From IMG/VR virus record IMGVR_UViG_3300044759_000011, positions 1 through 30,747 of that record: a stretch of 30,747 nucleotides of DNA. One strand, given 5' to 3'. Below, in pieces: positions 4,448 through 29,460 of the stretch (within the stretch, counting starts at the first letter, position 1; each line of letters starts with the position of its first letter). The stretch comes from a virus. Taxonomy: Duplodnaviria > Caudoviricetes. The notes under the pieces were generated by a model. It ran no database searches and had not been told where the DNA came from. It was given only the letters and a program-made list of their open reading frames with translations. Position numbers and translations under genes: made by a program.

Positions 4448-5110
4448 TTAGGGAGCGGCTGACGGGTCAATATACGACGGGCCAGTCTTGAGGCACACCG
4501 GCATCCCGGCCCGCTTGGCGACCTTCTTGTCCGCGTAGCAGACCGGTGTCGTCACCGACTGTCCCGTCCGGGAAGACACAGGCACCTCCGCCTGACTCAA
4601 CAGTACAGCCCTGCAGGGCATGCCAGCCCGTGCGTAGGCCGCAGCCACCGTAGGGTCCACGCACAGCACCTCCCTGGCTGCCTCGGCGTGGCCGAATGAG
4701 TGCATCAGGGCCGCTGCGGCGCGACGTTCGCAGCCGTCATCCTTGTGGCCGCTGCCACCAGAAAAGCCCCAGCCCATACCAGCGATGCCAACTGAAGAAC
4801 CGATGACGCAAGGAGAAGTGACCCCAACAGGCGGAGCGTAAGCCTGGGCTGCGGACTTGATGCGGTGGGTTCCACCGTACTCGACGTACTGATGAGTCTC
4901 TCCCGATTGCTCGATGCGCTGCGTGCCATCTGAGCGGTTGACTGTCTCGATGCGCTGGACTTCCGGCGCACTGGAGTTGAATGTGATGTTGTTGCCGTAG
5001 GCGGCAGTCTCGCTGGACGATGAGCTTGTGGCCGACCTGTCGGGGTTGGCCGTCTGCGCACAGACCGGCAAGGCTGCCACCATGGCAAGCCCGATGATGA
5101 GCTTGTGCAT
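4448..5110 (-). CDS. Secreted Cys-containing protein with Gly-rich amphipathic beta-hairpin (unknown function)
   Basis: Sec signal MHKLIIGLAMVAALPVCA|Q; motif APPVG..SPC.IGSSVGIAGMGWGFSGGSG.KDDGCERR...AAREVLC.D..V..AY..AG.PC; six Cys in the mature chain; AGGA RBS. Confidence 0.85.
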   Translation of the reverse strand: MHKLIIGLAMVAALPVCAQTANPDRSATSSSSSETAAYGNNITFNSSAPEVQRIETVNRSDGTQRIEQSGETHQYVEYGGTHRIKSAAQAYAPPVGVTSPCVIGSSVGIAGMGWGFSGGSGHKDDGCERRAAAALMHSFGHAEAAREVLCVDPTVAAAYARAGMPCRAVLLSQAEVPVSSRTGQSVTTPVCYADKKVAKRAGMPVCLKTGPSYIDPSAAP

Positions 5111-5126
5111 GGTGGCTTCCTGCTAC

Positions 5127-5756
5127 TTACGGAGCGACGCCAAGGGAGGCAGAACCACCCAGGAACGCGCCTGCACCGGCACCAGCGGCATTGCCCAGGT
5201 TCAGGCCGAACGATGCGCTCGCGCCGACTGCGTCGGTCACGGTGCTCGTGGTCGCGCCCGGGACGGCGGTTGCCGTGCCAGTCGTCGCGGCACCAACGGC
5301 GTTGGTGTGGAACGACAGGCCAGCACCAGGGCCGGACTGCGACAGGCTACCCGAGCCGACCTGGATGGCCGACACGCTGGAGGCTTGGTCGCCACCACCC
5401 GGGTTCGACTGCGCCGTGGCACCAGCAATGCCCGTCTGGGCTGCGCCGGCCGCGCTGGCGGCATTGCCGACGCTCACGCTGAACGTGGTGTCGGTCCCGA
5501 CGCTGGCTGCGCTCGTGGTTGCCGAATCCTGGCCGGCTGCGCTCACTTGCGCGGCGGAGGCCGTGCTGTTGTTCTGAGCGTGCGACACCGCCAGGGTGGC
5601 ACCACCGGAAGGTCCCGGGGTGTTGGTCGAGGCGGATCCACCGGCCACGGTGGAGAGCGATCCACTCAGGGCCGACGTGTCGGTGGTCTGAGCGAAAGCG
5701 GCACCACCAGCGGTGGCGAGGGCGGCGGCTGCCACAAGAGTGCGGATCATCTTCAT
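5127..5756 (-). CDS. Secreted Ala/Gly/Ser/Thr-rich low-complexity protein with two ~90-aa internal repeats (fibre/adhesin-like)
   Basis: Sec signal MKMIRTLVAAAALATAGGAAFA|Q; AAGGA RBS before ATG at 5756; mature chain has no K, R, E, C, W, Y or M. Confidence 0.85.
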   Translation of the reverse strand: MKMIRTLVAAAALATAGGAAFAQTTDTSALSGSLSTVAGGSASTNTPGPSGGATLAVSHAQNNSTASAAQVSAAGQDSATTSAASVGTDTTFSVSVGNAASAAGAAQTGIAGATAQSNPGGGDQASSVSAIQVGSGSLSQSGPGAGLSFHTNAVGAATTGTATAVPGATTSTVTDAVGASASFGLNLGNAAGAGAGAFLGGSASLGVAP

Positions 5757-5808
5757 TTGGAAATTTCCTTGCAAGTTACTGGCCTAAACCCGGGCCAGCG
5801 ACGGGATT

Positions 5809-6099
5809 CTAATGTACCTCGGGGCTTCCTGCCGAAGTTTCTTCAACCGGTGTGCGAATTTCGACACCGGTCGGTGAAAGCCCCAGGATCTGCTCTGCGA
5901 ATGACACGCCGATGACGGCGGACAGATGCACGATTGCGTCATGTACCTCCTCGGACAGATACGCAATGTTCTTATTGACGAGGGCCGCCGTGAAACAGTC
6001 CTTCGTGGTCGGCCCCTTGCATATCAGTATACGCACGGAATGCTCGTCCTCCCTAATGGCGACCCGGATCGGGGCCTCCTTGATATGCACGTCTGTCAC
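5809..6099 (-). CDS. Hypothetical protein (96 aa)
   Basis: GTG start overlaps the upstream stop (GTGA) with AAGGAG RBS; normal protein composition. Confidence 0.7.
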   Translation of the reverse strand: MTDVHIKEAPIRVAIREDEHSVRILICKGPTTKDCFTAALVNKNIAYLSEEVHDAIVHLSAVIGVSFAEQILGLSPTGVEIRTPVEETSAGSPEVH

Positions 6100-6455
6100 T
6101 TTGTCTCCTTGGGCTTGTAGGCGTCGGGCCGCAGCAAGGATGCGGGGATCCTGAACACCTTGGCAAGCTGGGCGGCCCGCAGGATGGGCACGGGGAAGTT
6201 GCGGTCACGCCTGCAAGCGGCTTCCCACTTGTAGAGCGACTGCGGCTTGATGCCCAGGGTCCGTGCGATGTCGGACTTGGTTGTATCCCTGGGCATCTTG
6301 TAGGTCATGGCCCACAACAGTGGGTGGTCGGTGGTCATCCTGCCCCCAGGCATCTCGGTGGGCAGCGACAACACTGGCTGGCGTGCTCCGTGGTTGACTG
6401 GCTTCTTGATGGCTGGAGGCTTGACGGCCTTGCGGACGTGCGTTGCGTTCTTCAT
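6096..6455 (-). CDS. Cro/YdaS-like helix-turn-helix DNA-binding protein
   Basis: TKSDIARTLGIKPQSLYKWE HTH and C-terminal IPASLLRPD; ATG at 6455 overlaps the helicase stop (ATGA). Confidence 0.8.
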   Translation of the reverse strand: MKNATHVRKAVKPPAIKKPVNHGARQPVLSLPTEMPGGRMTTDHPLLWAMTYKMPRDTTKSDIARTLGIKPQSLYKWEAACRRDRNFPVPILRAAQLAKVFRIPASLLRPDAYKPKETK

Positions 6456-7861
6456 GGGGTACCTTTCAGGCGACCGAGGATTGCGGACTGGACATCGGCC
6501 TTCTCTGCGAGGGCCTTGGCGATGTCTTCGTCCACGGTCCCCTGGGCCGTGAGGTAGTGTATCACCACAGGCTTCGTTTGACCCTGACGGTACACGCGAG
6601 CGTTGAACTGAATGTGTTCCTCCAAGTTCCAGGTCAGACCGAACCAGCACACTGCGTGCCCGCCTGCCTGGAGATTCAACCCGTGGGCCACCGACGTGGG
6701 GTGGGCCAGCAGGACAGGCAGCTTACCAGCATTCCAGTCCTCGATGATCTTGTCGGCCGCTGCCCGGGTGACCCCGCCGCCCAGGTACGGCACTTGCTGG
6801 CCTGGGGGCAGTACGTCCTCCAGGGCCTCCTTGATGGCCGGCACCTCGTGCAGGAAGGCCACGGCCACCAGCAGCGGGGTGCCCTGCATCTCCTCGACCA
6901 GTTCAGCCAGGGCGTTGACCTTGGCGTTGTGGACGAAGGCCGATTCGCCGCCCTCGTGGTACGCCCACCCGTTGGTGATCTGGCGCAGCTTCATCACTGC
7001 CGCCGCTGCGTTGGCGGCCGTGAGCACGGCGTTGCCGTTCGTCTTTGCCACCAGTTCCTTGGACAGTTGCTCGTAGGTGCCGCGAGCGTAGCCCGGAAGT
7101 TCAACTGGAATTACGTTATACGAAATTGCCGGCATCGACAGGTAGTCCTCTGCCTGCAGGCGCAGGGCGATGTCGGCTATCTTGGTCGACACGGCGATGT
7201 CCGCGTCGCCCTTCGGGTACCACTTGGTGACAGTCTTGCCGCCGCCGACGCGGATCTCCTCGGGCTCCATGAACTGCTTGCGGAAGTAGGTGATGTAGCG
7301 GCCCAGCCGCTGGCCGTCATCCACGATCTGCATCTGGGCGAACATGTCCTCGATGCTCTGCGGGGCCGGCGTGCCGGTCAGGATCAGGCGACGCTTGAAG
7401 AACGGCAGCATGTGCTTGAGGGCCTTGAACCGCTTGCTGCTGGGGTTCTTGAACCGGGTGCTCTCGTCCACGATCAGTAGCTCGGGCTTGGTGCCGAACA
7501 TCTGGATGACGTGATCCGACAGGTTGAACAGCCAGTCGGTGTTCTCCGGGTTGATCAAGTAGATGTCGGCCTTCGCGGCCAGGGCGGCGAGCCTCTCCTT
7601 GGGCGTGCCGTGGATGATGCTCACCTTGAGGTGGTTGAACTGCTCCCACTTCTTGATCTCGGCCGGCCACGTCAGGTACAGGGGCCGCAGGGGCACGATG
7701 ACCAGGGTGGCCTGGATGGCCTTGTGATGCTGGAGCACGAGGTGCGCGGCCAGGGCAATGGCCGTCTTGCCCATGCCGGGATCGAGCAGCATGGCCGTGC
7801 CTGGATTGCTGCAGATCATCTGGATGGCCTTGGCCTGGAAGGGGTAGGGTGCGTATTGCAT
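6452..7861 (-). CDS. SNF2-like superfamily 2 DNA helicase
   Basis: Motif I LLDPGMGKT, motif II IVDES, motif III LTGTP, motif V HGLNLQ, motif VI QFNARVYRQGQ. Confidence 0.95.
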   Translation of the reverse strand: MQYAPYPFQAKAIQMICSNPGTAMLLDPGMGKTAIALAAHLVLQHHKAIQATLVIVPLRPLYLTWPAEIKKWEQFNHLKVSIIHGTPKERLAALAAKADIYLINPENTDWLFNLSDHVIQMFGTKPELLIVDESTRFKNPSSKRFKALKHMLPFFKRRLILTGTPAPQSIEDMFAQMQIVDDGQRLGRYITYFRKQFMEPEEIRVGGGKTVTKWYPKGDADIAVSTKIADIALRLQAEDYLSMPAISYNVIPVELPGYARGTYEQLSKELVAKTNGNAVLTAANAAAAVMKLRQITNGWAYHEGGESAFVHNAKVNALAELVEEMQGTPLLVAVAFLHEVPAIKEALEDVLPPGQQVPYLGGGVTRAAADKIIEDWNAGKLPVLLAHPTSVAHGLNLQAGGHAVCWFGLTWNLEEHIQFNARVYRQGQTKPVVIHYLTAQGTVDEDIAKALAEKADVQSAILGRLKGTP

Positions 7862-7896
7862 GTCTTTGGTTCGTGTACTGAAGCCTCAGTCTACCT

Positions 7897-8172
7897 TCAC
7901 CCCAGCAGGCCGTCAAGCAGGGCCTTGAACTGTTGTGTGCTGTAGACAACAGCTACACGGTGGCCGATGCCCTCCAGTTCAGTGTGCCGGTACACCTGAC
8001 GGGGTGACAGGCGGCCGTCTGGCATCTTGAATTCGACCAGGATGCAGCGGCCGTTGGGCAGCAGGACCAGACGGTCGGGGTCGCCGGCCACGCCGCCATA
8101 CAACTTGATCGAGATGAGGCCCCGCTTGATGACGTACCGGCGGCACTGCTGCTCCATTGCGGCTTCACTCAT
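7897..8172 (-). CDS. VRR-NUC domain nuclease (putative Holliday junction resolvase)
   Basis: G.PDRLVLLPNGR..LVEFK.P.GRLSP.Q, the PD-(D/E)XK VRR-NUC signature. Confidence 0.92.
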   Translation of the reverse strand: MSEAAMEQQCRRYVIKRGLISIKLYGGVAGDPDRLVLLPNGRCILVEFKMPDGRLSPRQVYRHTELEGIGHRVAVVYSTQQFKALLDGLLG

Positions 8173-10513
8173 TTGTCACCTCGGGCTTGGCAATATGCAA
8201 TTTGAACTGGCGCACCTCCTGGTCGGTGGCCTGGATGATCCAGCGGTCCTGCTTGGTCGGCGCACCCCGCTTGTACAGGTCGCGGCCCGGACCCAGCATC
8301 CTCGCCAGGACGACACCCGCACTGCGCAGGTTCTTCGGGTGCAACCTGTCCAGGTCGCACAGGGCCAGCATGTGCTGCGGCCCGATGATCACCTGGATGG
8401 GGTACTTGTCGATGTCCTTGCGCCGCTCCAGGCTTTCCAGGATGTCCTCGGGCACGGGGTCAGGTGCCTGGAATTTGTCGGAGGCGGCGGCACGCAGGGC
8501 CTCCTCCTCGTCGGTCAGGTACCACTGCTCGCCGGCCTCCCAGGCTACATACATCTGTGCCCAGAATTGCTGCATGTCCACGCCGTGGTCCACGTGCGGG
8601 CGGCCGATCACCTTGACGGCCAGGAACCGGCCGCTGCCGGTGGGATCGTTGAGAAACTTCTCGTCGTTGACTGACCCGCAGAAGGACGTGCAGCGTGGCC
8701 GGCACAACCAGATGGCCGCGTATGGCAGGCGGTACTCGTCTGTCTCCTCGGTGATGAATGCCTTGAGGGCGGCGATGTCGGACTTCCTGAGGGTGCCGTC
8801 CAGTTCGCCCAGTTCCACGATGCCGCCCTGCAGGGCCTCGTGCTTGCTGTCGCGTGCGCCCAGGCCGTTCAGGTTCAGGTGCTTGCCGATCTTGCCGAAG
8901 CCCGGGGCCAGCGACATCAGCCAGCGGGACTTGCCGATGCGCTGGTCGCCCACGAGCACGAGCACCATGCCCTTCTGCGACTCGCGCCGCACCGTCCAGC
9001 CGCACGTGGCCTCGATGGTTTGCAATGCCCAGCGACGTAAATACCGCCGCCACAGGTCGGGGCGGGTGGTTGTCACCGACCCGGCCAGTAGCTCCAGGCG
9101 GTCCTTGCCGTCCCACTTCTTCGCCAGGATCCAGTCGCGCATCGGGTGCCAGTAGATGCTGTTGGCGATCCGGGCGAAGCAGTCTTTCAACTTCTGCTCG
9201 CTTTTCATGCGAGCGCGGCCGAAGACATCGGTCAACGCAGCTTCCACCATGTCGGCAATCTCCCGCTCGGACTTGTTGCCGAAGCGGTGCATCTCGATGC
9301 GCTCGGGCAGGATGTAGCTGGTCTTGGCCGTCATCAGGTTCAGCCGGGGATGCACGTCCAGCAGGCGCAGGCCGGCCTCGACGTTCTCGTAACTGGTCGG
9401 CTGGATGGCCTTGGGCTTGCCCTCTGCCGTGTTCTCGATGTGGGGCAGCATGCCCACGTCTATGTGCCCCAGGGATGCGCGCAGGCTGACAAAGTCGTAC
9501 AGGTTATGGTCTTGCACGTTGTGCTCCAGGGTGGGCACCGTTACCGGTGGGGGTGGGTCCTCCCTGAAGCTGGCGGCCTCGCGCAGGATCTTTGCGAAGG
9601 CTTCCTGTACGGAGTCCTCGACAACCTCCTTCTTATTCGGGGCGGCTGGTTGCTTCAGCACCCAGTCGATGACCCGCTGGGCGTACTCGGCCTCCTTGCC
9701 GAACTGGCCGTGCGTGTGGTTGCAGTAGGGTAGGCACTTGCCAACGTCGCTGTCGGCCTTGTGCATGTACTTGGCTTCCAACCGGCCGTCCGTGTGCTCC
9801 TCCGGGAATGGGCACAGCATCGGCCACCAGCCGGCATCGTTCTTCGGGCCGATGATGTACCCGTGGTCCAGCAACCAGTCGAAGATAGGGTCGGGCATGC
9901 CGGCCGCTGGCGGCGTCTCGGGCTTGACGCGCCTGGGCTTCGGCGGACCCGGAAAAATTTTTAAAGAGGCTGCGAGACTCTCTAGCGTGTAAACGCTGAG
10001 TGGGTCGAAGTGATGCAGCACCGCCTCGAACGAGTCGCGGCCTTCCTTGTCGTTGATCGAGCCGGGGATCCTGAACAGGCGGCAGGCCCGGTTGACGGCC
10101 TTGTCCTGCATCTTGGCCTCTACGAGGGCGGCCACCAGGGCGTCGGCCGCCGGCACGTCCATGCACCACTCCTCCAGCAGGAAGCCCCACTGGAAGTTGC
10201 CGGGGCTTGTCTCCAGGATCCAGGTCGGGGTGGCGTGGATCATCTTTGCGTCCACCTTCGTGCCCACGTCATCGATCACGATGGCGCGCACGGCGTGCGT
10301 GTTCACGTCCTGGCGCAACTTCTTGTGGTCGCTGGCCCCGGTGTAGAAGTACCAAGCCCCGGGCGGCAATTGCTTGCCGTCCCAGGCCCACGTGCTGAAG
10401 TATTCGCCTTTCTTGAGGGTCACCAGGAAGTGAAGGCCCTCGGGGCAGCCCCGGGCGAGGAGGGAGAGAAAGTTGTACTGCGTGCTAACATTCGCGTCAT
10501 CTTGGGTTGACAT
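8165..10513 (-). CDS. DNA primase-helicase: N-terminal RepB-like primase plus C-terminal VapE/VirE-type P-loop ATPase
   Basis: IVIDDVG, PTWILETSPGNFQWGFLL and RLFRIPGSIN (RepB primase); LVLVGDQRIGKS Walker A, IVELGELD, and FCGSVND..FL.DPTGSGRF (VapE). Confidence 0.9.
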   Translation of the reverse strand: MSTQDDANVSTQYNFLSLLARGCPEGLHFLVTLKKGEYFSTWAWDGKQLPPGAWYFYTGASDHKKLRQDVNTHAVRAIVIDDVGTKVDAKMIHATPTWILETSPGNFQWGFLLEEWCMDVPAADALVAALVEAKMQDKAVNRACRLFRIPGSINDKEGRDSFEAVLHHFDPLSVYTLESLAASLKIFPGPPKPRRVKPETPPAAGMPDPIFDWLLDHGYIIGPKNDAGWWPMLCPFPEEHTDGRLEAKYMHKADSDVGKCLPYCNHTHGQFGKEAEYAQRVIDWVLKQPAAPNKKEVVEDSVQEAFAKILREAASFREDPPPPVTVPTLEHNVQDHNLYDFVSLRASLGHIDVGMLPHIENTAEGKPKAIQPTSYENVEAGLRLLDVHPRLNLMTAKTSYILPERIEMHRFGNKSEREIADMVEAALTDVFGRARMKSEQKLKDCFARIANSIYWHPMRDWILAKKWDGKDRLELLAGSVTTTRPDLWRRYLRRWALQTIEATCGWTVRRESQKGMVLVLVGDQRIGKSRWLMSLAPGFGKIGKHLNLNGLGARDSKHEALQGGIVELGELDGTLRKSDIAALKAFITEETDEYRLPYAAIWLCRPRCTSFCGSVNDEKFLNDPTGSGRFLAVKVIGRPHVDHGVDMQQFWAQMYVAWEAGEQWYLTDEEEALRAAASDKFQAPDPVPEDILESLERRKDIDKYPIQVIIGPQHMLALCDLDRLHPKNLRSAGVVLARMLGPGRDLYKRGAPTKQDRWIIQATDQEVRQFKLHIAKPEVTNE

Positions 10514-10555
10514 CAGTTACTCCGAGGTGCCGCGTGGTGGCGGCCTGTCTCAAGG

Positions 10556-10590
10556 AGGCCCCGGGAGCGATCCCGGGGCCTTTCTCATTT
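10556..10590. terminator. Stable hairpin (11-bp stem, GCGA loop) between polymerase and primase
   Basis: AGGCCCCGGGA-GCGA-TCCCGGGGCCT followed by TTCTCATTT on +; the U tract is better on the antisense (+) strand. Confidence 0.6.
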
Positions 10591-12666
10591 GACGTACCGC
10601 TGGCCGGTCTTGATTTCGCAGCCGAGTGGGAAGCCATCCAGCCATTCTGGCACCCGGCGCATCTCGCGCTGCAGGATCCGAGCCGCCATAGCGGATTCCC
10701 CAGCCTTGCTGTCGAGCAACAGTTCGTCATGTGTGTGACCGATGACGATGGCATCGATCCGGTGCCGCCGCAGGGCCTCGTCTGTGCGTGCTGCACAGTC
10801 GCGCAGCAGGGTGGCGCACAGGGCCTGGGTGACGTTCTCGGCCAGCAGGCCGTGCCAGATGCGCTCGGTGCGGAAGCCATTGGGCAGGGCCTTCTTGAAG
10901 GTCACCTCGGTTTCCCAGGCGTCGATGGGCTTGCCGCTCCAGCCATCGGTCTTGCCGTCTAGCTCGATGGGCGGGCGGCCACGCTCGACCACGGTCCCCC
11001 GGATGCCGTGGTAGTACAGGGTGGTCAGGCCGGGTAGCTCGCAGGCGACGCTGATGGTCTTGGGCAGCAGCGGCGGGATACGCTTGTAGGCCACGTGCCC
11101 GAGCCTCGTGTCGGTGCCCAGCACGGCCTGCATGAAGGCCCCGTACAGGCCCTTGCTGAACACCGTGGCCCACGGGTTGGCCTCGCGCCACGCGAACACC
11201 ACGTTCTCGGCATCGGCCGGGTGCAGGCTGATGCCGTAGCCCCGGGCCATCGAACGCAGCGCGCCCCTCGCGCCGCCGAACTGCAGCGACAACTCGGCCA
11301 CCTTGCCGATCTGCCTCTCCTCGTCGGGCACGTCGTCGTAGGGGGTGCCGAAGATGCTGGCCGCGTTGACCCGGTACACGTCGGTGCCGTCCCGGTACAG
11401 GTTCAGCTTCCACTGGCAGTCGGCCAACCAGGGCATGCCCTTGGCCTCCACGGCCGTCCAGTCGCCCCAGACCAGGGTGCGGCCCTCGGTGGCCCGGATG
11501 GTGGGCCGCAGCAGGCTCGCCAGGACGTGCATGACCTTGCCCTCTACCTTGTGCTCCAGCACGGCCTCGACGGTCGCCTGCACGTCCTTGGGCGTCTGCC
11601 TGGGGAAGTTGTGGACCTGGATGCCGGTGCTGCTGAACCGCTTGGTCTGGATGGCCCCGTAGCAGATGTAGGCACCCTGGGCACGGCCGCCCTCCTCGGC
11701 CCGACCGGCCATCTTGGCGTACTTGGCGACGCTGGCCTTGCCGGCGTCGTCCACTATCTCGATCAGGTCGATCACCTCGGGCTCGACATCCTTGGCCGCC
11801 TCCGAGCGCAGGAAGTCGGCGCGGGCGGCCTTGTCGGTCGATTCCTTCTCCACCTCCAGGTAGCTGCCGTCCTCCTGCTTCTTCCTGACCATGCGGACGA
11901 AGAATTGTTTAAACACCTCCTCGTCCAGCATGCTGCGAAGGGTTTCCTTGACGCGTGCGTGCTGGCTGGTGCTCGTGATGCGGCCGTCCGTGTCCTGCTT
12001 CAGGCGGGCGTTCAACTCGGCCTTCTCCTTGGCCCCGTATGTCTGGGCCGCCAGGGCCAGCGGCACGTCGATGGGCAGGCCGGCGTCGTTGATGCGCTCG
12101 GTCAGCATGTACTCCTCCTGCTCGTGCTTGAACAGGGGGACCAGCCTGGAGGCCACGAACACCTCGGAGATGACATCGTGCATGCAGTAGCGCATCAGGT
12201 CTATGTACTCGTTGGGGTCGTCGGCATAGCCCGTCAGAGGGGGCAGCAGCGGCTTGCACCACTTCAGCATGATGGCCGCACCCTTGCGCTTCTCGGCCAG
12301 GGACTGCCTGTTGCCCAGGTAGTCGAGGGCATCCTCCAGCCGACCGGGCAGGCCCCGGGCGCGGGCCAGGGCGGCCGTGCAACGCCACCTCTCCAGGGGG
12401 ATGTCCTTGTCCAGCACGTGGCGGGTGATCAGCCGCTCGAACTGGGCGTTCCAGGCGTGCATCTCGCACTTCGGGTTGCGGAAGGCGTCGCGCAGATCGG
12501 CGGGCATCTTGTGGCCGGCTGCGTTGGGCCAGCACTGGACCTTGCCGTAGTCGATGCTGTAGGCGCAGCACAGGATCCTGGTCGAGGGGTGTCTCGCGTA
12601 GACGTGGGCACCAACCATGCGAAGGTCGATGTCGGAGCGGGTTTCGTAGTCGAAGTGGCAGATCAT
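10585..12666 (-). CDS. Phage family A DNA polymerase with 3'-5' exonuclease domain
   Basis: ExoI DYETRS, ExoII AWNAQFE, ExoIII YCMHDV; motif A DWTAVEAK, motif B RQIGKVAELSLQFG, motif C HTHDE; start at ATG 12666 (MICHFDYE). Confidence 0.95.
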   Translation of the reverse strand: MICHFDYETRSDIDLRMVGAHVYARHPSTRILCCAYSIDYGKVQCWPNAAGHKMPADLRDAFRNPKCEMHAWNAQFERLITRHVLDKDIPLERWRCTAALARARGLPGRLEDALDYLGNRQSLAEKRKGAAIMLKWCKPLLPPLTGYADDPNEYIDLMRYCMHDVISEVFVASRLVPLFKHEQEEYMLTERINDAGLPIDVPLALAAQTYGAKEKAELNARLKQDTDGRITSTSQHARVKETLRSMLDEEVFKQFFVRMVRKKQEDGSYLEVEKESTDKAARADFLRSEAAKDVEPEVIDLIEIVDDAGKASVAKYAKMAGRAEEGGRAQGAYICYGAIQTKRFSSTGIQVHNFPRQTPKDVQATVEAVLEHKVEGKVMHVLASLLRPTIRATEGRTLVWGDWTAVEAKGMPWLADCQWKLNLYRDGTDVYRVNAASIFGTPYDDVPDEERQIGKVAELSLQFGGARGALRSMARGYGISLHPADAENVVFAWREANPWATVFSKGLYGAFMQAVLGTDTRLGHVAYKRIPPLLPKTISVACELPGLTTLYYHGIRGTVVERGRPPIELDGKTDGWSGKPIDAWETEVTFKKALPNGFRTERIWHGLLAENVTQALCATLLRDCAARTDEALRRHRIDAIVIGHTHDELLLDSKAGESAMAARILQREMRRVPEWLDGFPLGCEIKTGQRYVK

Positions 12667-12689
12667 TGGAGCCTCAGTCTTTATACGCG

Positions 12690-12722
12690 TAACGAAATAG
12701 GCCCCGGGTTGCCCCAGGGCCT
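12690..12722 (-). terminator. Intrinsic terminator-like hairpin downstream of the putative SSB
   Basis: Minus strand AGGCCCTGGG-GCAA-CCCGGGGCCT followed by ATTTCGTT. Confidence 0.55.
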
Positions 12723-12727
12723 GGGCC

Positions 12728-13429
12728 TCAGGCAGCCTTCTTGGCTGCCTTGAACGGGGCCGCCTTCTTGGCGGGCACCTTCTTGGCCGGTACGGGGGGC
12801 TTCGGGGGCATGGGCATGGCATCAATCTCCGGTAGTTGGTCCACCCAGTCTACAACAGTGAACAGGGGCGTGTACACAGTCCCGAAGGTACGATTCTTGT
12901 GCTTGTACGAATCGTTGGACAGGCTGACCACGGCAATCAGCCGCTTGGGATCCGCCTTGTACTGGGCGATGTACTCCTTCTTGAGGGATGCGATGGCATT
13001 GCGCCCACCGTGGGAGGTGGTGCTGTACTTCAGCGGCTGGCCGTTGAGCACCGCCGACAGGCCCATCAGTTCGGACCACTCGCGGCCGTTCTTGGGCACC
13101 TCTTGCGGGCACGGCGGCATGGGTTCGTGCATCGGGGTCCAGATGTCGCCCAGCAACTCGGTCTGCACGCCTGGAAGGTCGCTGTCGGCCCAGCACTGCC
13201 ACCCGTGGATGAAGCCACCCAGGTCGATATAGAGCACCTCGTCGTCCTCGACCGGTGTCTCCTCGACGCCGTGGGACCAGATGCCGGCCTTGCTCATCTT
13301 CAGGAACCCGACGCGGGTGGATCCACCCTCGCCCATGTTCACCATCAGGGCCTGGAATTTCTCCGGGTCCAGGGCCACAAGCTGGCCGCTTCCATTCCCG
13401 TTCGAACGGGTCGCTACTGCTTTCGTCAT
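12728..13429 (-). CDS. Putative single-stranded DNA-binding/annealing protein
   Basis: Position between exonuclease and PolA; motifs F.HGWQCW, YSTTS.GG, L..DSYKHK..FG.VYTP.F.VVDWV typical of phage proteins at this slot; GGAG RBS. Confidence 0.65.
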   Translation of the reverse strand: MTKAVATRSNGNGSGQLVALDPEKFQALMVNMGEGGSTRVGFLKMSKAGIWSHGVEETPVEDDEVLYIDLGGFIHGWQCWADSDLPGVQTELLGDIWTPMHEPMPPCPQEVPKNGREWSELMGLSAVLNGQPLKYSTTSHGGRNAIASLKKEYIAQYKADPKRLIAVVSLSNDSYKHKNRTFGTVYTPLFTVVDWVDQLPEIDAMPMPPKPPVPAKKVPAKKAAPFKAAKKAA

Positions 13430-13432
13430 TTG

Positions 13433-14563
13433 CTAACTCCTGTACTTTGCAAGTTCAAAATTCGCCATCAGACGTTCGATCTTCGTTGCTTCTGGCTTTA
13501 GTTCGGGCAAGGCCGGGGCTTCACCCGGGGGACACTTTACCAGATTGGTGCCGCTGGAAACCGCCACGATCATGTCCTTCAGTTCCTGCGGCATGTTGGG
13601 GTGGGCCTTCTCGGCCATGGCCGGGGACATCAGCTTGTCCTGCCATATCTTGATGCGCCTGCGGCGTGCGAATATCAGCACCTGTTCCTCACTCACCCAC
13701 TGGCGGGTCGCCCTTTTTGGTTTCAGCACGTACCCTGGAACCCCAGGTTTTCCCAGTGCAAGACACTCTGAGGCTGCCTTGTGGGCAGTCTCCCGCAGGG
13801 AGTTGATCCACGCATCCAGGCGGTCGGCCCGGTCGAGCCACAGGGCCACCGTCTGCAGGGTCATGCCCTTGGGCATGCCGGCCGCGCCCAGGGCCTCGAT
13901 CACCTCGCCGCGCAGGACGGGGCAGAAGGACTTGGCCTTGCAGAAGCGGCACCAATCACCAGGAACGATATCCGCGCCGCCGGCCAGGGCGGCATGGATG
14001 GCAGCCTCGGCGCGAACGCCCCAGGCCAGCACGTTGGTTGCGCTCGTGTCCCAGATCTTGACTTGGTCCTCGGTGTCGGGCGGCTGGACGATGGTGATGC
14101 GAACCTTGGGCGGGTGCAGCCCCATTTCCTTCAGCATGCGGGCCAGGGCCATGTAGGCGTAGGCCATGCCCTGGTCGTTGTTCATCGGGTCCACCAGGAT
14201 GCCGGCCCCGCACTTCAGGTCCACGATCTCCAGCAGGCCCTCGGCCTTGAAGTACAGCATCAGGTCGGGCGTGCCGAATAGCAGATCGGAGTGGTGGATT
14301 GTCTCCTCGATGGCGAAGGCACTGGCCTTCGCCATGCGGGCCATGGCGTAGTCCAGGTAGGGCCTGAGGAAGGTCAGGTCGGCCGGGTCGTGGTAGGCAG
14401 CCGGGTCGTTGCTCTCCAGGACGGCCTTGGCGACGCCGTGCAGGCGGCTGCCCTCGGCGGCGTACTCGCTGTCGGGCTCCTCGGGCCGCTGCAGCCCGAG
14501 GGCGAAGCTGCCGGGGCAGTTGATCCACCTCTTTGCGGAGGATGGGGCGAATGGTGCGTGCAT
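13433..14563 (-). CDS. DUF2800-family Cas4-like PD-(D/E)XK exonuclease
   Basis: HA.FAPSSA.RW.NCPGS, A.EGS.LH, FGTPD, IVDLKCG.G, Q..AYA and C-terminal WCRFCKAK..CP (four Cys, Fe-S type). Confidence 0.92.
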   Translation of the reverse strand: MHAPFAPSSAKRWINCPGSFALGLQRPEEPDSEYAAEGSRLHGVAKAVLESNDPAAYHDPADLTFLRPYLDYAMARMAKASAFAIEETIHHSDLLFGTPDLMLYFKAEGLLEIVDLKCGAGILVDPMNNDQGMAYAYMALARMLKEMGLHPPKVRITIVQPPDTEDQVKIWDTSATNVLAWGVRAEAAIHAALAGGADIVPGDWCRFCKAKSFCPVLRGEVIEALGAAGMPKGMTLQTVALWLDRADRLDAWINSLRETAHKAASECLALGKPGVPGYVLKPKRATRQWVSEEQVLIFARRRRIKIWQDKLMSPAMAEKAHPNMPQELKDMIVAVSSGTNLVKCPPGEAPALPELKPEATKIERLMANFELAKYRS

Positions 14564-16392: not shown

Positions 16393-16421
16393 AGTGTAGC
16401 TCGGGGCTATAACCTTGTCAA
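16393..16421 (-). promoter_or_regulatory. Sigma70-type promoter TTGACA-N17-TACACT
   Basis: Consensus -35, 17-nt spacer containing TAGCCCCGAGC, near-consensus -10; overlaps the end of the upstream gene. Confidence 0.85.
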
Positions 16422-17774: not shown

Positions 17775-17804
17775 AGTATATCAGCCCTGGGCTTCAAAGG
17801 GCAA
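17775..17804 (-). promoter_or_regulatory. Leftward promoter TTGCCC-N18-TATACT with AGCCCAGGGCT box in the spacer
   Basis: Read directly from the reverse complement. Confidence 0.7.
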
Positions 17805-18765: not shown

Positions 18766-18795
18766 ATTGTAGCCCAGGGTTGGTACCCTGGGCAA
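18766..18795 (-). promoter_or_regulatory. Leftward promoter TTGCCC-N18-TACAAT overlapping palindrome GCCCAGGG-N7-CCCTGGGC
   Basis: Read directly from the sequence. Confidence 0.75.
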
Positions 18796-19068: not shown

Positions 19069-19099
19069 ATTGTAGCCCAGGGTTTCAATCCTGGGCTAT
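19069..19099 (-). promoter_or_regulatory. Leftward promoter (-10 TACAAT) overlapping palindrome TAGCCCAGG-N8-CCTGGGCTA
   Basis: Read directly from the sequence; -35 position is TAGCCC. Confidence 0.7.
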
Positions 19100-19109
19100 C
19101 GTAGGGTCT

Positions 19110-19415: not shown

Positions 19416-19445
19416 AGTATAGCCCAGGGCTTAAAGCCCTGTCAA
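19416..19445 (-). promoter_or_regulatory. Strong sigma70-type promoter TTGACA-N18-TATACT
   Basis: Consensus -35 and 5/6 -10; spacer GGGCTTTAAGCCCTGGGC contains the shared box. Confidence 0.88.
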
Positions 19446-19456
19446 CAGTGGGGCGT

Positions 19457-19819
19457 TTAAACGAAGCTGTAGTTGTCCAGGTCGGTGTCCACGGCCGGGG
19501 CAGCACGCTTGCCCGAGGTGTGGCGGCGGTCGGTGATGTCCCAGCCGCCGATGCCCATGCCCTTCCAGTTGCGGTTCGCCAGGGCGAAGCGCAGCAGGTT
19601 GTTGACCACGTGCGTCTGATCGGTATCGAACATCTCGGCCAGGGCCTCGATGGTGGGTGCCACCTTGCCGTCCAGCCGCAGGGTCTTCACGGCATTGGCC
19701 TCTCGCCATGCACGTTGACGGGCCGCCGCATCGGCGTGCTTGGCAGGGCGGCCACGCTTGGCCTTGGGAGCGGCCTCGACTTGGGCCGGGGAGGTGGTGT
19801 CGATGAATGCTGTCGTCAT
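19457..19819 (-). CDS. Putative DNA-binding protein: AT-hook-like KRGRP plus ribbon-helix-helix-like domain
   Basis: AKRGRPAKH; KTLRLD..V...IEALAE.FD.DQTHVVNNLLRFAL (alternating strand followed by two helices); first leftward gene after the switch region. Confidence 0.65.
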   Translation of the reverse strand: MTTAFIDTTSPAQVEAAPKAKRGRPAKHADAAARQRAWREANAVKTLRLDGKVAPTIEALAEMFDTDQTHVVNNLLRFALANRNWKGMGIGGWDITDRRHTSGKRAAPAVDTDLDNYSFV

Positions 19820-20149
19820 GCTTCTATTATCGGTAGCCTGGGGCTTCACTTGAGGATTATCTGCGAACTGTTACATCTGGCCCCCAGGCCGCCCCAGGTG
19901 GTGCCCCACCCTGGCCGCAGGTGCCCTGTCATAGGGAGGCCCCAGTTCCCCCAGGGTTCCCCAACCTTATATATGGGTACGAATAAGTATTGGTGAACAT
20001 CCAGTTACAGGTGAGGGGGAATGTGGGGGGGTTAAGGCGGCCCAGGTAGGGTGGGGACCCTGTGCGGCCTGTTCTGCCCTATGAACAGCCTCCCTGCGGC
20101 CTGCGGCTGGGCCTTGTGCTGGACCCTGTGCGCGCCTATGCTCGGGGCC
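19820..20149. promoter_or_regulatory. Divergent non-coding switch region between early (-) and packaging/head (+) arms; candidate genome end/pac region
   Basis: Strand switch of all credible ORFs; -10 GATAAT (-) at 19826-19831; TTGTGC-N17-TATGCT (+) at 20114-20142; AT-rich core at ~19967-19991. Confidence 0.65.
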
Positions 20150-20515
20150 ATGGGCACGACTAAAACAGAAGGAAATAGGGACAACCCTAAGATGGGCAGG
20201 GCCGGCAACCCGCTGGCCGGCCGGCAGAAGGGCACGCCCAACAAGGTCACGGGCGAATTCAGGGACACGGTACGTGCCCTGCTGGAGGACAACCGCCACA
20301 ACGTGGCCCTGTGGATCCAGCAGATCGCTGAGGGTGCCCCGGCCGTCTACGACGCCAACGGCAAGCTGGTGTTCCCAGCACGCCCACCCGATCCCGTGGC
20401 GGCGGCCAGCCGGCTGGCCGCCCTGGCCGAATTCGCAGCACCCAAGCTGACCCGCACAGAGGTGACAGGCGAGGCCGGCGGTGCCCTCAACGTGATCATC
20501 CACAAGGTCGCCTGA
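20150..20515 (+). CDS. terS: Terminase small subunit
   Basis: N-terminal GRQKGTPNKVT motif, helical core, C-terminal APKL.RTEVTGE.GGAL.V.I; first gene of the packaging arm. Confidence 0.8.
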   Translation: MGTTKTEGNRDNPKMGRAGNPLAGRQKGTPNKVTGEFRDTVRALLEDNRHNVALWIQQIAEGAPAVYDANGKLVFPARPPDPVAAASRLAALAEFAAPKLTRTEVTGEAGGALNVIIHKVA

Positions 20516-20543: not shown

Positions 20544-21068
20544 ATGACATGCGATCACAGGATGGGATGGGCACCAGCGGCTGGTGAAGACTTCAACGGG
20601 TGGTTCCACGTGGAACAACCCGAGGCTGCCAGCATGCCGGCCGAGCCACGCGAGGTGCAGCCCCGGCGTTGGGTGAACCCCAGGTGCATGACCAAGGGGG
20701 ACCACGAGGCCCGCGAGCGTGACCAGCAGATGGGCCGCCTGGGGCTGCCCATGTTCCACGTGGAACAGCCTGGGGTGCTGGTGTTCTACGATGGCCGCAG
20801 TGCGTGCGAGCCTCAGGCATACGAGATGGCGGCCTGCGGCCAGGGCCAGTCCGACATGATCCAGGGCCTGGAGGCCAAGGACCTGTCCGAGGCCCTGGCG
20901 GCCCTCAGGGAGGCCGAGTTGGCGGCGGCGCACGAGGCTGCGGCTGCGCATGCTCGCAGCATGGGCGAGGCGCACCAGCAGCGCATGCTCAAGCTGCAGG
21001 CCGAGGCGCATGCGTGCGTCGGCATGCAGCGCGGCGACAGTGGCTGGCGCGACTGGAACGATGGCTGA
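20544..21068 (+). CDS. Hypothetical protein carrying two parS sites in its coding sequence
   Basis: GGGGA RBS; stop overlaps the next ATG; helical Ala/Glu-rich C-terminus; FHVEQ twice is the translation of the parS palindromes. Confidence 0.55.
   Translation: MTCDHRMGWAPAAGEDFNGWFHVEQPEAASMPAEPREVQPRRWVNPRCMTKGDHEARERDQQMGRLGLPMFHVEQPGVLVFYDGRSACEPQAYEMAACGQGQSDMIQGLEAKDLSEALAALREAELAAAHEAAAAHARSMGEAHQQRMLKLQAEAHACVGMQRGDSGWRDWNDG
20602..20617. promoter_or_regulatory. parS: parS-type ParB binding site GGTTCCACGTGGAACA
   Basis: 15/16 match to the palindrome TGTTCCACGTGGAACA; fits the bacterial chromosomal parS consensus TGTTNCACGTGNAACA. Confidence 0.85.
20752..20767. promoter_or_regulatory. 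parS: parS-type ParB binding site TGTTCCACGTGGAACA (perfect palindrome)
   Basis: Exact 16-bp palindrome matching the chromosomal parS consensus. Confidence 0.9.
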
Positions 21069-21763: not shown

Positions 21764-21873
21764 TGAAGGAGCCGCCCGTCTGGTTCCAGGTGATCATGTA
21801 CGTGATCACCGGTTTGGCGGCCGTCTGGCTGGGTGTCCACTTGGCATGGTGGCTGGGCGGCCTCTTCATATGA
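21763..21873 (+). CDS. Small single-pass membrane protein (36 aa)
   Basis: TGATG overlap upstream and ATGA overlap with terL; hydrophobic VWFQVIMYVITGLAAVWLGVHLAWWLGGLFI. Confidence 0.6.
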   Translation: MKEPPVWFQVIMYVITGLAAVWLGVHLAWWLGGLFI

Positions 21874-23231
21874 CCGATCTGATCCTGCCCAACGGGTTCA
21901 CCCCCCGGCCGCCGCAGAAGGAGTTGATGCGCTACTTCGACCACGGCGGCCTGCGGGCCGCCGCGTGTTGGCCGCGACGGTACGGCAAGGACCTGACCAT
22001 GGTCCACCAGACCGTCAAGATGATGTTTGAACGTCCAGGCATGTACTTCCACATGCTGCCCAACCACAAGCAGGCCAGGAAGGTCATCTGGGACGGGTTC
22101 GACAACACCGGCAGGAAGATCATCGACACCGCCATGCCGGCCAGCATCCGGCAGGACACGAATCGCACAGAGATGAAGATCACGCTGAAGAACGGCGCGA
22201 TCTGGCAGCTTGTAGGCTCGGACTACTACGACAGCATCGTCGGTGCCAACCCATTCGGCCTCGTGATGAGTGAGTCCGCCCTCTCAGACCCCCGGGCGTG
22301 GTCCATATTCCGCCCGATCCTTGCCGGCAACGGAGGCTGGGCAGCCTTTATAAGCACACCCCGGGGCTACAACCACTTTTATGACCTGATGCAGCTTGCG
22401 AAGAAGAATGATCATTGGTACCACAGCCATTTGAGTGTCGAGCACACCCGCCATATCCCGGAATCGGTCCTTTCGGACGAGCGGCACGAGATGCCAGACG
22501 AGTTGTACCGCCAGGAGTACGGGTGCGATTTCAGCGCGGCGAACGTCGGGGCCATTTTCGGCCGCTACATCGAGCAGGCCGAGAAGGAGGGCCGGATCTG
22601 TGCCCTGAACATGCCTGGGGATCATGAGATTTGGGTTACCAGCGACATAGGCTACAGGGACAAGGCCGCGTTCGTCTGGTGGCGGCGGTTCAGGGGCGGC
22701 TTTGAGATATTCCACTACGACGATGGGTCAGGCATGGACGCCGAGGAGTGGTCGGGCCGGCTGGGCAAGCAACCGAAGGCGGACGTGCTGGTGCTGCCCC
22801 ACGACGCGAAGGTGAAGACGTTTCAGAGCAAGCGGTCCACGGTCGAGACATTCCTCGCCAACCCACCCTGGCCCGGTTGCGAGATACGTGTAAACGAGAT
22901 ACGCAAGAAGGCCGACAGCATCAACGCCGGCCGGCTGATGATGCGCAGGGTCAGGATCAGCAACGAACCGGTGTGCGAGCCCTTCGTGATGGCTATGCGC
23001 GCCTACGCCTACAAGTACGACGAGGAAACCAAGACGTTCAGCAGCGAGCCAGAGCACAATTGGGCCTCCCACCCGGCCGATGCGTTCATGGAAGGGGCGG
23101 CGAGGTTGTCCGAGCTTGAGCCGGCACCGCCCAAGAGGACGATCATCGTGCCGTCCATCGACCGGGCCTTTACGCTTGACCAGTTGCACGAGGCGGTCAA
23201 CCCCAACACCCAGCGCAGCGGGAGGATCTGA
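21870..23231 (+). CDS. terL: Terminase large subunit
   Basis: FTPRPPQ adenine-binding motif, WPRRYGKD Walker A, LVMSE Walker B, FISTPRG.NHFY, nuclease SDIGYRD and H.WASHPADAF. Confidence 0.96.
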   Translation: MTDLILPNGFTPRPPQKELMRYFDHGGLRAAACWPRRYGKDLTMVHQTVKMMFERPGMYFHMLPNHKQARKVIWDGFDNTGRKIIDTAMPASIRQDTNRTEMKITLKNGAIWQLVGSDYYDSIVGANPFGLVMSESALSDPRAWSIFRPILAGNGGWAAFISTPRGYNHFYDLMQLAKKNDHWYHSHLSVEHTRHIPESVLSDERHEMPDELYRQEYGCDFSAANVGAIFGRYIEQAEKEGRICALNMPGDHEIWVTSDIGYRDKAAFVWWRRFRGGFEIFHYDDGSGMDAEEWSGRLGKQPKADVLVLPHDAKVKTFQSKRSTVETFLANPPWPGCEIRVNEIRKKADSINAGRLMMRRVRISNEPVCEPFVMAMRAYAYKYDEETKTFSSEPEHNWASHPADAFMEGAARLSELEPAPPKRTIIVPSIDRAFTLDQLHEAVNPNTQRSGRI

Positions 23232-25399
23232 TGCCCGGTCCCTACGACCAGCCCCCGGTTCCAGGCCAGCCGCCAATGCCGGGTGACGAAAAGGGCGGAT
23301 ACGCCAAGGACACCCCTGCCCAGCGCAAGAGCAAAGCGGAGGCTGGAAAGCAGCTTCCCGTGAAGGAGGCCCGCGAGGCCAAGAAGGATCCGGCCAAGAT
23401 GGCCGAGGTGTGGGAAAAGGAACTGCAGGCGGCCAAGAAGGAGTTGACGAAGTTCCACACCCAGGCCCGCAAGCTGGTCCAGCGGTACCTGGATGAGCGC
23501 GAGTCGTCGGCCATCGTGGACGGCGCGGATTCGCGGGTCAACCTGTTCTGGTCCAACACCGAAGTCCTCAAGTCCAGCCTCTATGCGAAACCGCCGAAGG
23601 TGGATGTCTCCAACAGCTACAAGGACAGCAACGACGACGTGGCACGCGTGGCGGGCAACATCCTCCAGAGGATGCTCAACAACGACGTGGAAGAAGACGA
23701 CGAGAGCACGTACCCGGAAATCACGAGGCAGGCGGTAGGCGACTACCTGATCGTCGGCCTGGGTCAGGTCTGGTACCGCTACGAGGTTGAAACGCAGACT
23801 TCGTCCACCGACCCAGTGACCGACCCCGAGACTGGCACGGTGCTGGCCGAGCCTGTCGAGTACGAGGCCATCACGCATGAGGATGCGCCGGCCGACTACG
23901 TCTACTGGGAAGACTTCTGGTGGTCGCCGGCACGGGTCTGGCAGGACGTGCGGTGGGTGGCGCGGCGGGTGTACATGAACCGCGAGGAGTTGATCGCACG
24001 GTTTGGCGACAAGATCGGCAAGGACGTGCCGATCAGCAAGCAGAAGCCCAGGGGTGACTCCATATCGCCCCAGAACGACCCCTGGGAGAAGGCCGGCGTG
24101 TTCGAGATATGGGACAAGACCACGAAGTGCGCCTACTGGCACGTCATGGGCTACAACATCATCTGCGACCACAAGGAAGACCCGATGAAGCTGCGCGGGT
24201 TCTTCCCGTGCCCCTGCCCGCTGATGGCGAACCTCACCACCAGCAAGTTCATGCCCCGGGCCGACTTCCTGATGGCCCAGGACCAGTACGCGCAGATCGA
24301 TGAGCTTTCCACGCGCCTGAAGTACCTCATCAAGGCTTGCAAGGTGGTTGGTGCCTACGACAAGACCAGCACCCCGCTTGGGCGGATCTTCAGCGAGGGC
24401 ATGGAGAACCAGATGATCCCGGTGGACAACTGGGCCGCCTTCGCGGAGAAGGGCGGCATCAAGGGGTCCATGGACTTCGTGCCCATCGAGATAGTGGCCC
24501 AGGTCATCGAGCGGCTGACCCAGCAGCGCGACATCCTCAAGGCTACCCTGTACGAGGTGCTGGGCATCGGGGACATCATGCGCGGCATGACCAACCCGGA
24601 TGAAACCCTGGGGGCGCAGCAACTCAAGGCTGAATTCGGCGGCAACCGTCTGCAGTTTAAACAGCAACAGATAGGATGCTGGGTAGCGGCCGGCCAGCGC
24701 ATCCGGTCCCAGATCTTCTGCTATCACTTCCAGCCCGACACGATCATCGAGCGGTCCAACATCATGCTCAGTGAGGACGCCCCCATGGCCCAGCAGGCCG
24801 TGGAATTCCTCAAGAGCGGGGCCGAGGCCAAGCAGTACCGCATTACGGTCGAGTCTGAAACGATGGCTATGGTGGACTGGGCACAGGAACGCGACAGCAG
24901 GACCCAGTTCATGGAAGCGGTCGGCGGGTTCCTGTCCAGCACCAGCGACGTGATGCAGACGATGCCCAAGGCGGTGCCCGTGCTGCTGCAGATGATGAAG
25001 TGGGGCCTGGGCGGCTTCCGGGTGTCCAAGGAAATCGAGACTGTGCTCGATCAGGCCATCAAGGAAGCCAGCACGCCGCCCGAGCCGGCCCCGCCGACAC
25101 CCGAGGACGACGCGGCGGTCGAGAAGGATCTGGCCTCTGCCGACCAGTCCCGTGCCACGGCCCTGGAGAAGCGTGTCCAGGCCGGCATGGACCTGTTGTC
25201 GGCCCAGCAGATGGGCCTGCCGGTCGCCGGCATGCCTCTCGGCCCGGAGATAGGCCCCAAGCCCCCAGGGCAGCCCCCAGGCGGCCCCCCAGGCCCGCCG
25301 GAAGGCCCTGGTGGGCCTCCGGGTCCTGGCGGCCCTCCTGGCGGCCAGATGCCGCCTCCTGGCGGCCCCCCGGGTCCACAAGGTCCACCACCTCAGTAG
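23231..25399 (+). CDS. Portal protein with Pro/Gly-rich termini
   Basis: Directly after terL; NLFWSN.EVLK..LYAKPPK.DV, G.GQVW.RYE, V.WVARRVYM, GFFPCP.PL and GI.DI.RG..ETLGAQQLK motifs. Confidence 0.9.
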   Translation: MPGPYDQPPVPGQPPMPGDEKGGYAKDTPAQRKSKAEAGKQLPVKEAREAKKDPAKMAEVWEKELQAAKKELTKFHTQARKLVQRYLDERESSAIVDGADSRVNLFWSNTEVLKSSLYAKPPKVDVSNSYKDSNDDVARVAGNILQRMLNNDVEEDDESTYPEITRQAVGDYLIVGLGQVWYRYEVETQTSSTDPVTDPETGTVLAEPVEYEAITHEDAPADYVYWEDFWWSPARVWQDVRWVARRVYMNREELIARFGDKIGKDVPISKQKPRGDSISPQNDPWEKAGVFEIWDKTTKCAYWHVMGYNIICDHKEDPMKLRGFFPCPCPLMANLTTSKFMPRADFLMAQDQYAQIDELSTRLKYLIKACKVVGAYDKTSTPLGRIFSEGMENQMIPVDNWAAFAEKGGIKGSMDFVPIEIVAQVIERLTQQRDILKATLYEVLGIGDIMRGMTNPDETLGAQQLKAEFGGNRLQFKQQQIGCWVAAGQRIRSQIFCYHFQPDTIIERSNIMLSEDAPMAQQAVEFLKSGAEAKQYRITVESETMAMVDWAQERDSRTQFMEAVGGFLSSTSDVMQTMPKAVPVLLQMMKWGLGGFRVSKEIETVLDQAIKEASTPPEPAPPTPEDDAAVEKDLASADQSRATALEKRVQAGMDLLSAQQMGLPVAGMPLGPEIGPKPPGQPPGGPPGPPEGPGGPPGPGGPPGGQMPPPGGPPGPQGPPPQ

Positions 25400-28494: not shown

Positions 28495-29460
28495 ATGGCT
28501 TTCCCCAATGTCTCGGACATCGTCGCCACGACGATCCAGTCGCGCACCCGCAAGATCGCGGACAACGTGACCAAGAACAATGCCCTCTACATGCGGCTGG
28601 ACCAGCGGGGCAACCGCAAGACGTTCAGCGGGGGCAATGTGATCTACCAGGAGTTGTCGTTCGCGCAGAACAGCAACGGCGGGTGGTACTCGGGCTATGA
28701 CTTGTTGCCGGTCGCTGCCTCGGACGTGATTAGCGCGGCCGAGTACACGATCAAGCAACTGGCCTGCCCCGTCACCATGAGCGGCCTGGAAACCATCCAG
28801 AACGCTGGCCGCGAGCAGATGATCGATCTGCTGGAGGGTCGCATCACGGTGGCGGAAGCCACCATGGCGAACCTCATGGCCGAGGGCGTCTACGGCAACG
28901 GCACCACGTTCGCCGGGAAGTCCCTGACCGGACTGGGGGCCGCCGTACCGGTGGATCCCAGCACCGGCATCTATGGTGGGATCGACAGGGGCACGTGGAA
29001 TTTCTGGCGCAGCCAGATCGTCCCCGCCGGCACCGCGCTGACGGCCTCCACGATCCAGGCGGCCTGGAACGGCCTGTGGGCTGCCCTGGTGCGCGGCACC
29101 GACCGTCCCGACCTTATCGCCGTGGACAACTTCATGTGGCAGACGTATCTGGCGAGCCTGCAGGCGCAGCAGCGTTTTGCATCGCCAGAGGTTGGCAACC
29201 TGGGGTTCCCAAGCCTGAAGTTCATGGACGCCGACGTGGTCCTGGACGGCGGCATCGGCGGCTTCTGCCCTGCCAAGACGGCGTTCTTCCTGAACACCAA
29301 GTTCATCTTCCTGCGCCCGCACAGTCAGCGTGACATGGTGTCACTCGACCCCAACAAGCGTTACGCCGTGAACCAGGACGCCGAGGTGTCAATCTTGGCC
29401 TGGGGTGGCAACCTCACCTGTTCCGGCGCACAGTTCCAGGGCCGGCTGATCAGCGGCTAA
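28495..29460 (+). CDS. Major capsid protein
   Basis: MAFPN.SDIVATTIQSR..KIADNVTKNNAL..RL, YSGYD.L, SG.E..QN.G.EQ.IDLL and W.GNLT.SG..FQG motifs; GGAGG RBS; position after scaffold. Confidence 0.92.
   Translation: MAFPNVSDIVATTIQSRTRKIADNVTKNNALYMRLDQRGNRKTFSGGNVIYQELSFAQNSNGGWYSGYDLLPVAASDVISAAEYTIKQLACPVTMSGLETIQNAGREQMIDLLEGRITVAEATMANLMAEGVYGNGTTFAGKSLTGLGAAVPVDPSTGIYGGIDRGTWNFWRSQIVPAGTALTASTIQAAWNGLWAALVRGTDRPDLIAVDNFMWQTYLASLQAQQRFASPEVGNLGFPSLKFMDADVVLDGGIGGFCPAKTAFFLNTKFIFLRPHSQRDMVSLDPNKRYAVNQDAEVSILAWGGNLTCSGAQFQGRLISG

Follow-up and report, generated by a model that had tools for sequence, protein, structure and literature searches.

Why should a phage of lytic type carry two chromosome-type parS sites inside one of its genes, with no partition genes found in the same DNA? 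The window, which here means the whole stretch analysed (30,747 nucleotides), is a 30.7-kb viral contig of 65% GC. It is 56% complete by CheckV, with about 11 kb missing. A first-pass annotation had noticed the two sites and proposed that the phage recruits ParB from its host. The features on which the following analysis depends are listed below.

6452..14563, minus strand: replication module with SNF2 helicase, VRR-NUC, primase-helicase, family A polymerase and exonuclease (Pfam/PHROG matches)
19820..20149, no strand: early/late divergent intergenic region (from ORF directions)
20150..20515, plus strand: putative terminase small subunit (terS), first late-strand gene (from position; homologues upstream of terL in relatives)
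20544..21068, plus strand: parS-bearing ORF of 174 aa (14 homologues including itself)
20602-20617, no strand: parS site A, GGTTCCACGTGGAACA, one mismatch to the consensus
20752-20767, no strand: parS site B, perfect palindrome TGTTCCACGTGGAACA, exact consensus match
21870..23231, plus strand: terminase large subunit (phrog_2, E 1.4e-28)
23231..25399, plus strand: portal protein (phrog_12082, E 2.7e-157)
28495..29460, plus strand: major capsid protein (closest cultured match Stenotrophomonas phage BUCT555)

The two parS sites and the phage genome

Sites A and B are 150 bp apart and were the only matches to the parS consensus with two or fewer mismatches in the window. Shuffled sequences gave a mean of 0.03 sites, and two or more sites were found in 0 of 100 shuffles. 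By sequence comparison with the P. aeruginosa sites given in PMC5098823, site A is the reverse complement of parS1 and parS4 and site B is identical to parS2 and parS3, so that both the presence of the pair and its likeness to the P. aeruginosa forms, as first described, were borne out. Site B is also identical to the Bdellovibrio parS probe given in PMC10547168. By sequence, each is a chromosome-type parS: a palindrome of 16 bp that agrees with sites to which chromosomal ParB binds. The suggestion that the parS variant might narrow the host failed, as the variant is common to several bacterial groups.

Both sites were spanned by contigs of runs X2, X4 and X6 with zero letter differences; because these contigs agree, an assembly error at the sites is unlikely. 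The early/late divergence (19819-20150) is some 450 bp away from the sites, whose flanks are phage genes, not host chromosome near oriC. Site A is read in frame as W-F-H-V-E-Q (F21) and site B as M-F-H-V-E-Q (F71). The surrounding DNA had been described as not otherwise duplicated, which proved incorrect: sites A and B have similar 3' flanks (23 nt at 87%, QPE versus QPG), which suggests that one copy may stem from a short local duplication. The first-pass annotation had placed the sites in an ORF just after terS. The position of the ORF is right, but the name terS comes from position and homology only, with zero Pfam or PHROG family matches for the putative gene.

The genome is arranged as a minus-strand early arm and a plus-strand late arm. 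Its genes point to a phage of lytic type with an autonomous replication module and no PF00589 match. The capsid protein is 69.5% identical to that of BUCT555, followed by those of Myxococcus phages Mx8 and Mx9 (58-61%), and the host is most likely Gram-negative. Two routes to a host assignment were given up: a TerL scan of genome contigs gave 2 distant, short MAG contigs, and the best polymerase matches reached only 27-35%. The ten holders sharing at least half of the window's sequence words were labelled sediment, outdoor or plain metagenome, and no RNA data set was among the listed holders of the window sequence.

Some other features of the genome were observed. Four sigma-70-type early promoters are predicted on the minus strand (16393-16421, 17775-17804, 18766-18795 and 19416-19445; shuffle mean 1.1). 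The inverted repeat GCCCAGGG-N6-CCCTGGGC, likely a phage repressor operator, fills the promoter spacer at 18772 and 19075 and is less exact at 19416-19453; a related repeat was seen at 19069-19106. A small Cro/HTH-like protein encoded after the helicase (6096-6431, minus strand), with weak Pfam matches below the cut-off, is a candidate binder of this operator. Downstream of the replication arm (4448-5774, minus strand) are two predicted secreted proteins rich in Ala, Ser and Gly, one of which matches phrog_20531, a family with no function attached. Positions 1-390 of the window are 100% identical over 390 bases to G002:C1:41937-42326, from a complete relative that is otherwise 69-87% alike; this may reflect a recent exchange of a tail module or an assembly effect.

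The absence of parA and parB from the window, as first stated, was confirmed: neither ParB_N nor ParA-type AAA_31 was found in the 30.7-kb record (56% complete), and no plasmid Rep was found in its sequenced part. A cognate ParB elsewhere in the genome, which had been named as the sign of an ordinary partition system, did not come to light. Over most of its length, the record is colinear with G002 (42.3 kb), a complete relative, at 69-85% identity, and the roughly 11 kb absent from the record corresponds there to 30853-41937, a segment of virion-type genes with zero Par matches.

Occurrence in the gene family, in relatives and in viral contigs

The ORF at 20544-21068 has a GC3 of 0.84 for the frame from 20523. 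It is fast-evolving and belongs to a family of 14 members including itself; searches for its function gave no Pfam, PHROG or usable Atlas match, and its predicted structure was of low confidence (pTM 0.25). FHVEQ is present in 12 of the 14 family proteins and FHMEQ in one; that of G002 has neither. The motif sits at three positions in the family. Position A is occupied in the window, P0009 and P0012, and not in L001, L187 and L190. Position B is occupied in most members, with an exact orthologous site in L001/L186, L187/L189 and L190, and position C, 54 bp after B, in L001/L186 and L187/L189. P0012 has FHVEQ only at A, and L001 has it at B and C.

Homologues which keep FHVEQ with codons that break the palindrome had been named as evidence against a role of the DNA. 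None was found: all 7 copies with DNA (two in the window, two of the L001 type, two of the L187 type and one in L190) read TTC CAC GTG GAA CA. GAA makes up 20% of the Glu codons of the phage, and all four parS codons would be expected by chance at 0.079 per independent copy; independence does not hold among the 7 copies. Among four lineages, synonymous variation was seen at 16 of 37 other invariant codons and at 0 of 4 parS codons, a weak difference (P ~0.1, calculated by hand). The GVLV codons beside site B are invariant as well, so that shared ancestry or protein constraint may explain the codon invariance. In the family, E is followed by Q in every case and never by H, which fits duplication from one ancestor.

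Of 48 TerL loci, 34 extended 1.5 kb or more upstream; L001 and L022 were the only ones to show a site with no more than one mismatch (2/34). L001 has two perfect sites; L022 has one GTTTCACGTGAAAC-type site within a terS-like gene. The TerL tree was made without L021 (stop codon), near-duplicates, partial loci and several distant loci. In the complete phage G006, from another terminase branch, two sites lie in non-coding DNA between the early arm and the late arm. BUCT555 (L272, MW291508) has five parS-like sites at 78, 472, 2370, 37884 and 39380, which span about 4 kb across the ends of the record and begin 0.8 kb from terS (approximate shuffle mean 0.07); one of them is identical to the chromosomal parS given for X. 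citri (PMC3937727) and M. xanthus (PMC3899335). Searches for PF00589 tyrosine integrases in G000, G002, G003, G006 and BUCT555 found none. A BUCT555 gene labelled integrase (11687-13957) had no PF00589 match and by eye is primase-helicase-like.

The proposed scan of relatives for parS and parAB favoured the use of host ParB in part. The complete, site-bearing G006 and BUCT555 carry no ParB_N, and neither does L022, but among the closest TerL relatives (79-90% identity) the site was present in 1 of 17 and absent from 16 of 17. The complete relatives G002 and G003 have no parS. From the TerL loci, G006, BUCT555 and L022 together, the site is seen on several branches near the early/late junction, and carrying it is an optional trait within the clade.

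G002, which lacks parS and is the phage of the sole family member without FHVEQ or FHMEQ, encodes its own ParB_N protein of 351 aa (G002:C1:14742-15794, minus strand; L178), which has 78 homologues at E<=1e-30; the window holds another gene at this locus. Possibly this phage interferes with host ParB, or replaces it, by means of the protein instead; it is a single case, and G003 has neither. No co-occurrence of a G002-type ParB_N gene with the FHVEQ relatives P0004, P0007, P0012 and P0014 was seen among the 78 homologues, a comparison that is indirect and weak. Between terS and the ORF, G002 also has a repeated non-coding insert of GACATGGACGTACGTAGT-like units (L002, about 7830-8050).

The exact site B was estimated to occur in about 2600 stored viral stretches (from 3/64 parts) and the exact site A in about 590 (from 13/64 parts), while two control palindromes of equal composition had 3 and 3 occurrences and four synonymous FHVE[HQ] recodings had 79 together; these counts are of stretches, not species. 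About one viral contig per thousand has the exact site-B variant, several hundred times the control rate. Viral sites were both intergenic and intragenic, the latter in each of the three reading frames, for example as VPRGT and CSTWN (crude ORF calling). Because of the control counts and these non-coding and other-frame occurrences, it is the DNA palindrome and not the peptide which recurs in phages, and selection looks to act on the DNA.

We fetched 121 parS loci, which fell into 90 clusters. A hand count of genes within 3 kb in 80 scanned loci gave virion, packaging or lysis genes in 49/80, an integrase in 1/80 and a ParB-like gene in 1/80, the last adjoining a PAPS reductase gene. Some of the remaining loci may be host DNA, since PHROGs cannot name host genes. 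For comparison, 40 of 79 control loci were scanned, with the four longest ORFs per locus (three for L230). Closeness to the terminase as a general rule was rejected (17/80 parS loci versus 6/40 control loci, p 0.47), as was closeness to terminase or portal (24/80 versus 8/40, p 0.28). Integrase depletion near parS was not significant (1/80 versus 3/40, p 0.11), and single sites had no bias towards contig ends (10/80 versus 9/79).

Other arrangements were seen in the collection. In 32 viral stretches (L278-L309) two parS cores lie 20-50 bp apart, and 9/32 of these are within 500 bases of a contig end, which may be true termini or assembly breaks. The site also occurs in Microviridae (L060), and of 143 phage records that matched a 30-base query, 16 were Microviridae. 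Nine loci (L063, L080, L118, L122-L124, L130, L136 and L159; contigs of 42-105 kb where listed) share a parS neighbourhood; the site is within a gene of 307-357 aa, in the FHVE frame, in most of those fully fetched, and some members have additional degenerate sites close by.

Proposed use of host ParB and other explanations

Taken together, sites A and B are probably sites for host ParB. The collection controls, the gain and loss of positions within the family and the ParB-less complete relatives indicate that a host-type parS is kept at the DNA level. To this extent the first-pass annotation was upheld, as host-type sites are kept in a phage for which no parAB of its own was found in the sequenced part; the five purposes it had listed (positioning or segregation, condensin loading, promoter silencing, resemblance to self DNA and titration of ParB) are not separated by the data. 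Positioning as reported for phi29 appears to be the best supported among the purposes considered. The chances are about even that the sites load host ParB so that host ParA and SMC treat the phage DNA as they would a chromosome origin, positioning and segregating it.

In this mechanism, host ParB would bind the phage parS and spread on the entering or stalled genome, and ParA would hold the ParB-bound genome on the nucleoid and hand it to daughter cells. A phage without an integrase would thereby have a means of staying in sediment hosts that grow slowly or lie dormant, until lysis becomes possible. For a host that forms no endospores, the benefit would be nucleoid placement and inheritance during a stalled infection. 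In P. aeruginosa, ParB was reported to bind four parS sites in ChIP-seq, and an ectopic parS to bind ParB wherever it was placed and to reposition the adjoining DNA (PMC5098823). Since an ectopic parS moves DNA there, a phage genome with two sites may be expected to be handled alike.

The rival that FHVEQ was kept or duplicated for the protein, with the palindrome as a by-product or neutral relic, is improbable. FHVEQPG(V/T)LV is the best-kept stretch in the family, the within-family synonymous test is weak (P ~0.1) and the 3' flanks are common to sites A and B, all in favour of this rival. Against it, viral contigs hold far fewer synonymous recodings than copies of the palindrome (79 versus about 2600), and the same 16-mer is elsewhere non-coding or read in other frames (VPRGT, CSTWN). 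Within the family, the residues before F are limited to M, V, L, W and R, all codable with an ending TG or GG, and the orthologue P0002 is without the motif. Ordinary phage-plasmid partition, with a cognate ParB and ParA encoded in the missing 11 kb, is very improbable. The record is incomplete (56% by CheckV) and the close relative G002 does carry a ParB_N protein; against this, the colinear G002 segment 30853-41937 holds virion-type genes without a Par match, the G002 ParB_N locus is sequenced in the window with another gene there, G002 has no parS, and the complete G006 and BUCT555 have sites and no ParB_N.

Two rivals accept the binding of host ParB and differ in its purpose. As a decoy, hundreds of replicated phage parS copies would titrate ParB off the host origin, block segregation and division and enlarge the burst. 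SGI1 is reported to destabilise its helper plasmid through parS mimics in a copy-number-dependent manner (PMC10954446), the loss of functional parS in P. aeruginosa to give about 25% anucleate cells (PMC5098823), and multiple copies recur (two in the window, five in BUCT555 and the 32 stretches with pairs 20-50 bp apart). We nevertheless regard a decoy as unlikely, since a short lytic cycle would give a segregation defect little time to pay and most sampled viral loci have a single site within 3 kb. Regulation, in which ParB spreading would dampen a nearby early sigma-70 or late promoter and time lysis to the state of the host, seems quite unlikely. It agrees with sites at or near the early/late junction in four branches of the terminase tree (window, G006, BUCT555 and L022), with consensus promoters 1.2-4.2 kb from the sites and with P. 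aeruginosa ParB spreading, which is reported to exceed 20 kb (PMC5098823). However, terminase closeness is not enriched across viral contigs (17/80 versus 6/40), many viral sites are within polymerase, baseplate or terminase genes, and the repression described for phi29 was due to Spo0A and not to Spo0J (PMC2731898).

The principle of a phage parS used with host ParB is already known from phi29. In the main texts of the open-licence literature we found no survey of host-type parS in phages; by the same measure, new here are the several-hundred-fold enrichment across viral contigs, the shifts of the site within one family and the five BUCT555 sites. The enrichment suggests that the use of host ParB is widespread. 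A tentative reading, to which we give somewhat less than an even chance, is that lytic phages have repeatedly evolved the carriage of a host centromere and commonly rely on it, far beyond the phages of spore-formers; they would then overprint parS on their genes and use host ParB, ParA and SMC for inheritance or shelter without integration. If true, this reading would provide a molecular basis for pseudolysogeny and bear on how a lytic phage lacking an integrase survives in cells that do not grow. BUCT555, a relative in culture that has five sites and whose host can be grown, gives direct experimental access. The parS variants might aid host assignment generally; that of the window is too widely shared.

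Comparison with known systems

Phage-plasmids of the P1 and N15 type have their own parABS, with the centromere site on the phage genome. In contrast, the sequenced part of the window phage is without ParA, ParB and plasmid Rep, and its site sequence is chromosomal. The chromosomal ParABS systems described for P. aeruginosa (PMC5098823), X. citri (PMC3937727), M. xanthus (PMC3899335) and Bdellovibrio (PMC10547168) use two or more copies of a 16-bp palindrome that is the same as that of the window or differs from it by one base. Unlike these, the window sites are on a phage genome and adjoin neither parAB nor a host origin. SGI1, as described for its mimicry of the IncC parS (PMC10954446), is similar in having two parS mimics, no Par proteins and reliance on the ParB of another replicon; it is an integrative element aimed at a plasmid system, whereas the window has a chromosome-type site on a lytic-type phage.

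The closest likeness in use is to phi29, a virulent Bacillus phage with five parS sites through which, as reported, host Spo0J segregates the phage genome into the prespore (PMC2731898). Common to both are several host-type parS sites and a proposed reliance on host ParB for genome movement, and the window phage, like phi29, appears to be lytic. phi29 has terminal proteins and uses its sites for endospore entry, whereas the window phage has a terminase, a portal and a capsid like those of BUCT555 and Mx8; entrapment in endospores is unlikely for it because its host is most likely Gram-negative. Its predicted sites are overprinted on a gene and differ in position among relatives.
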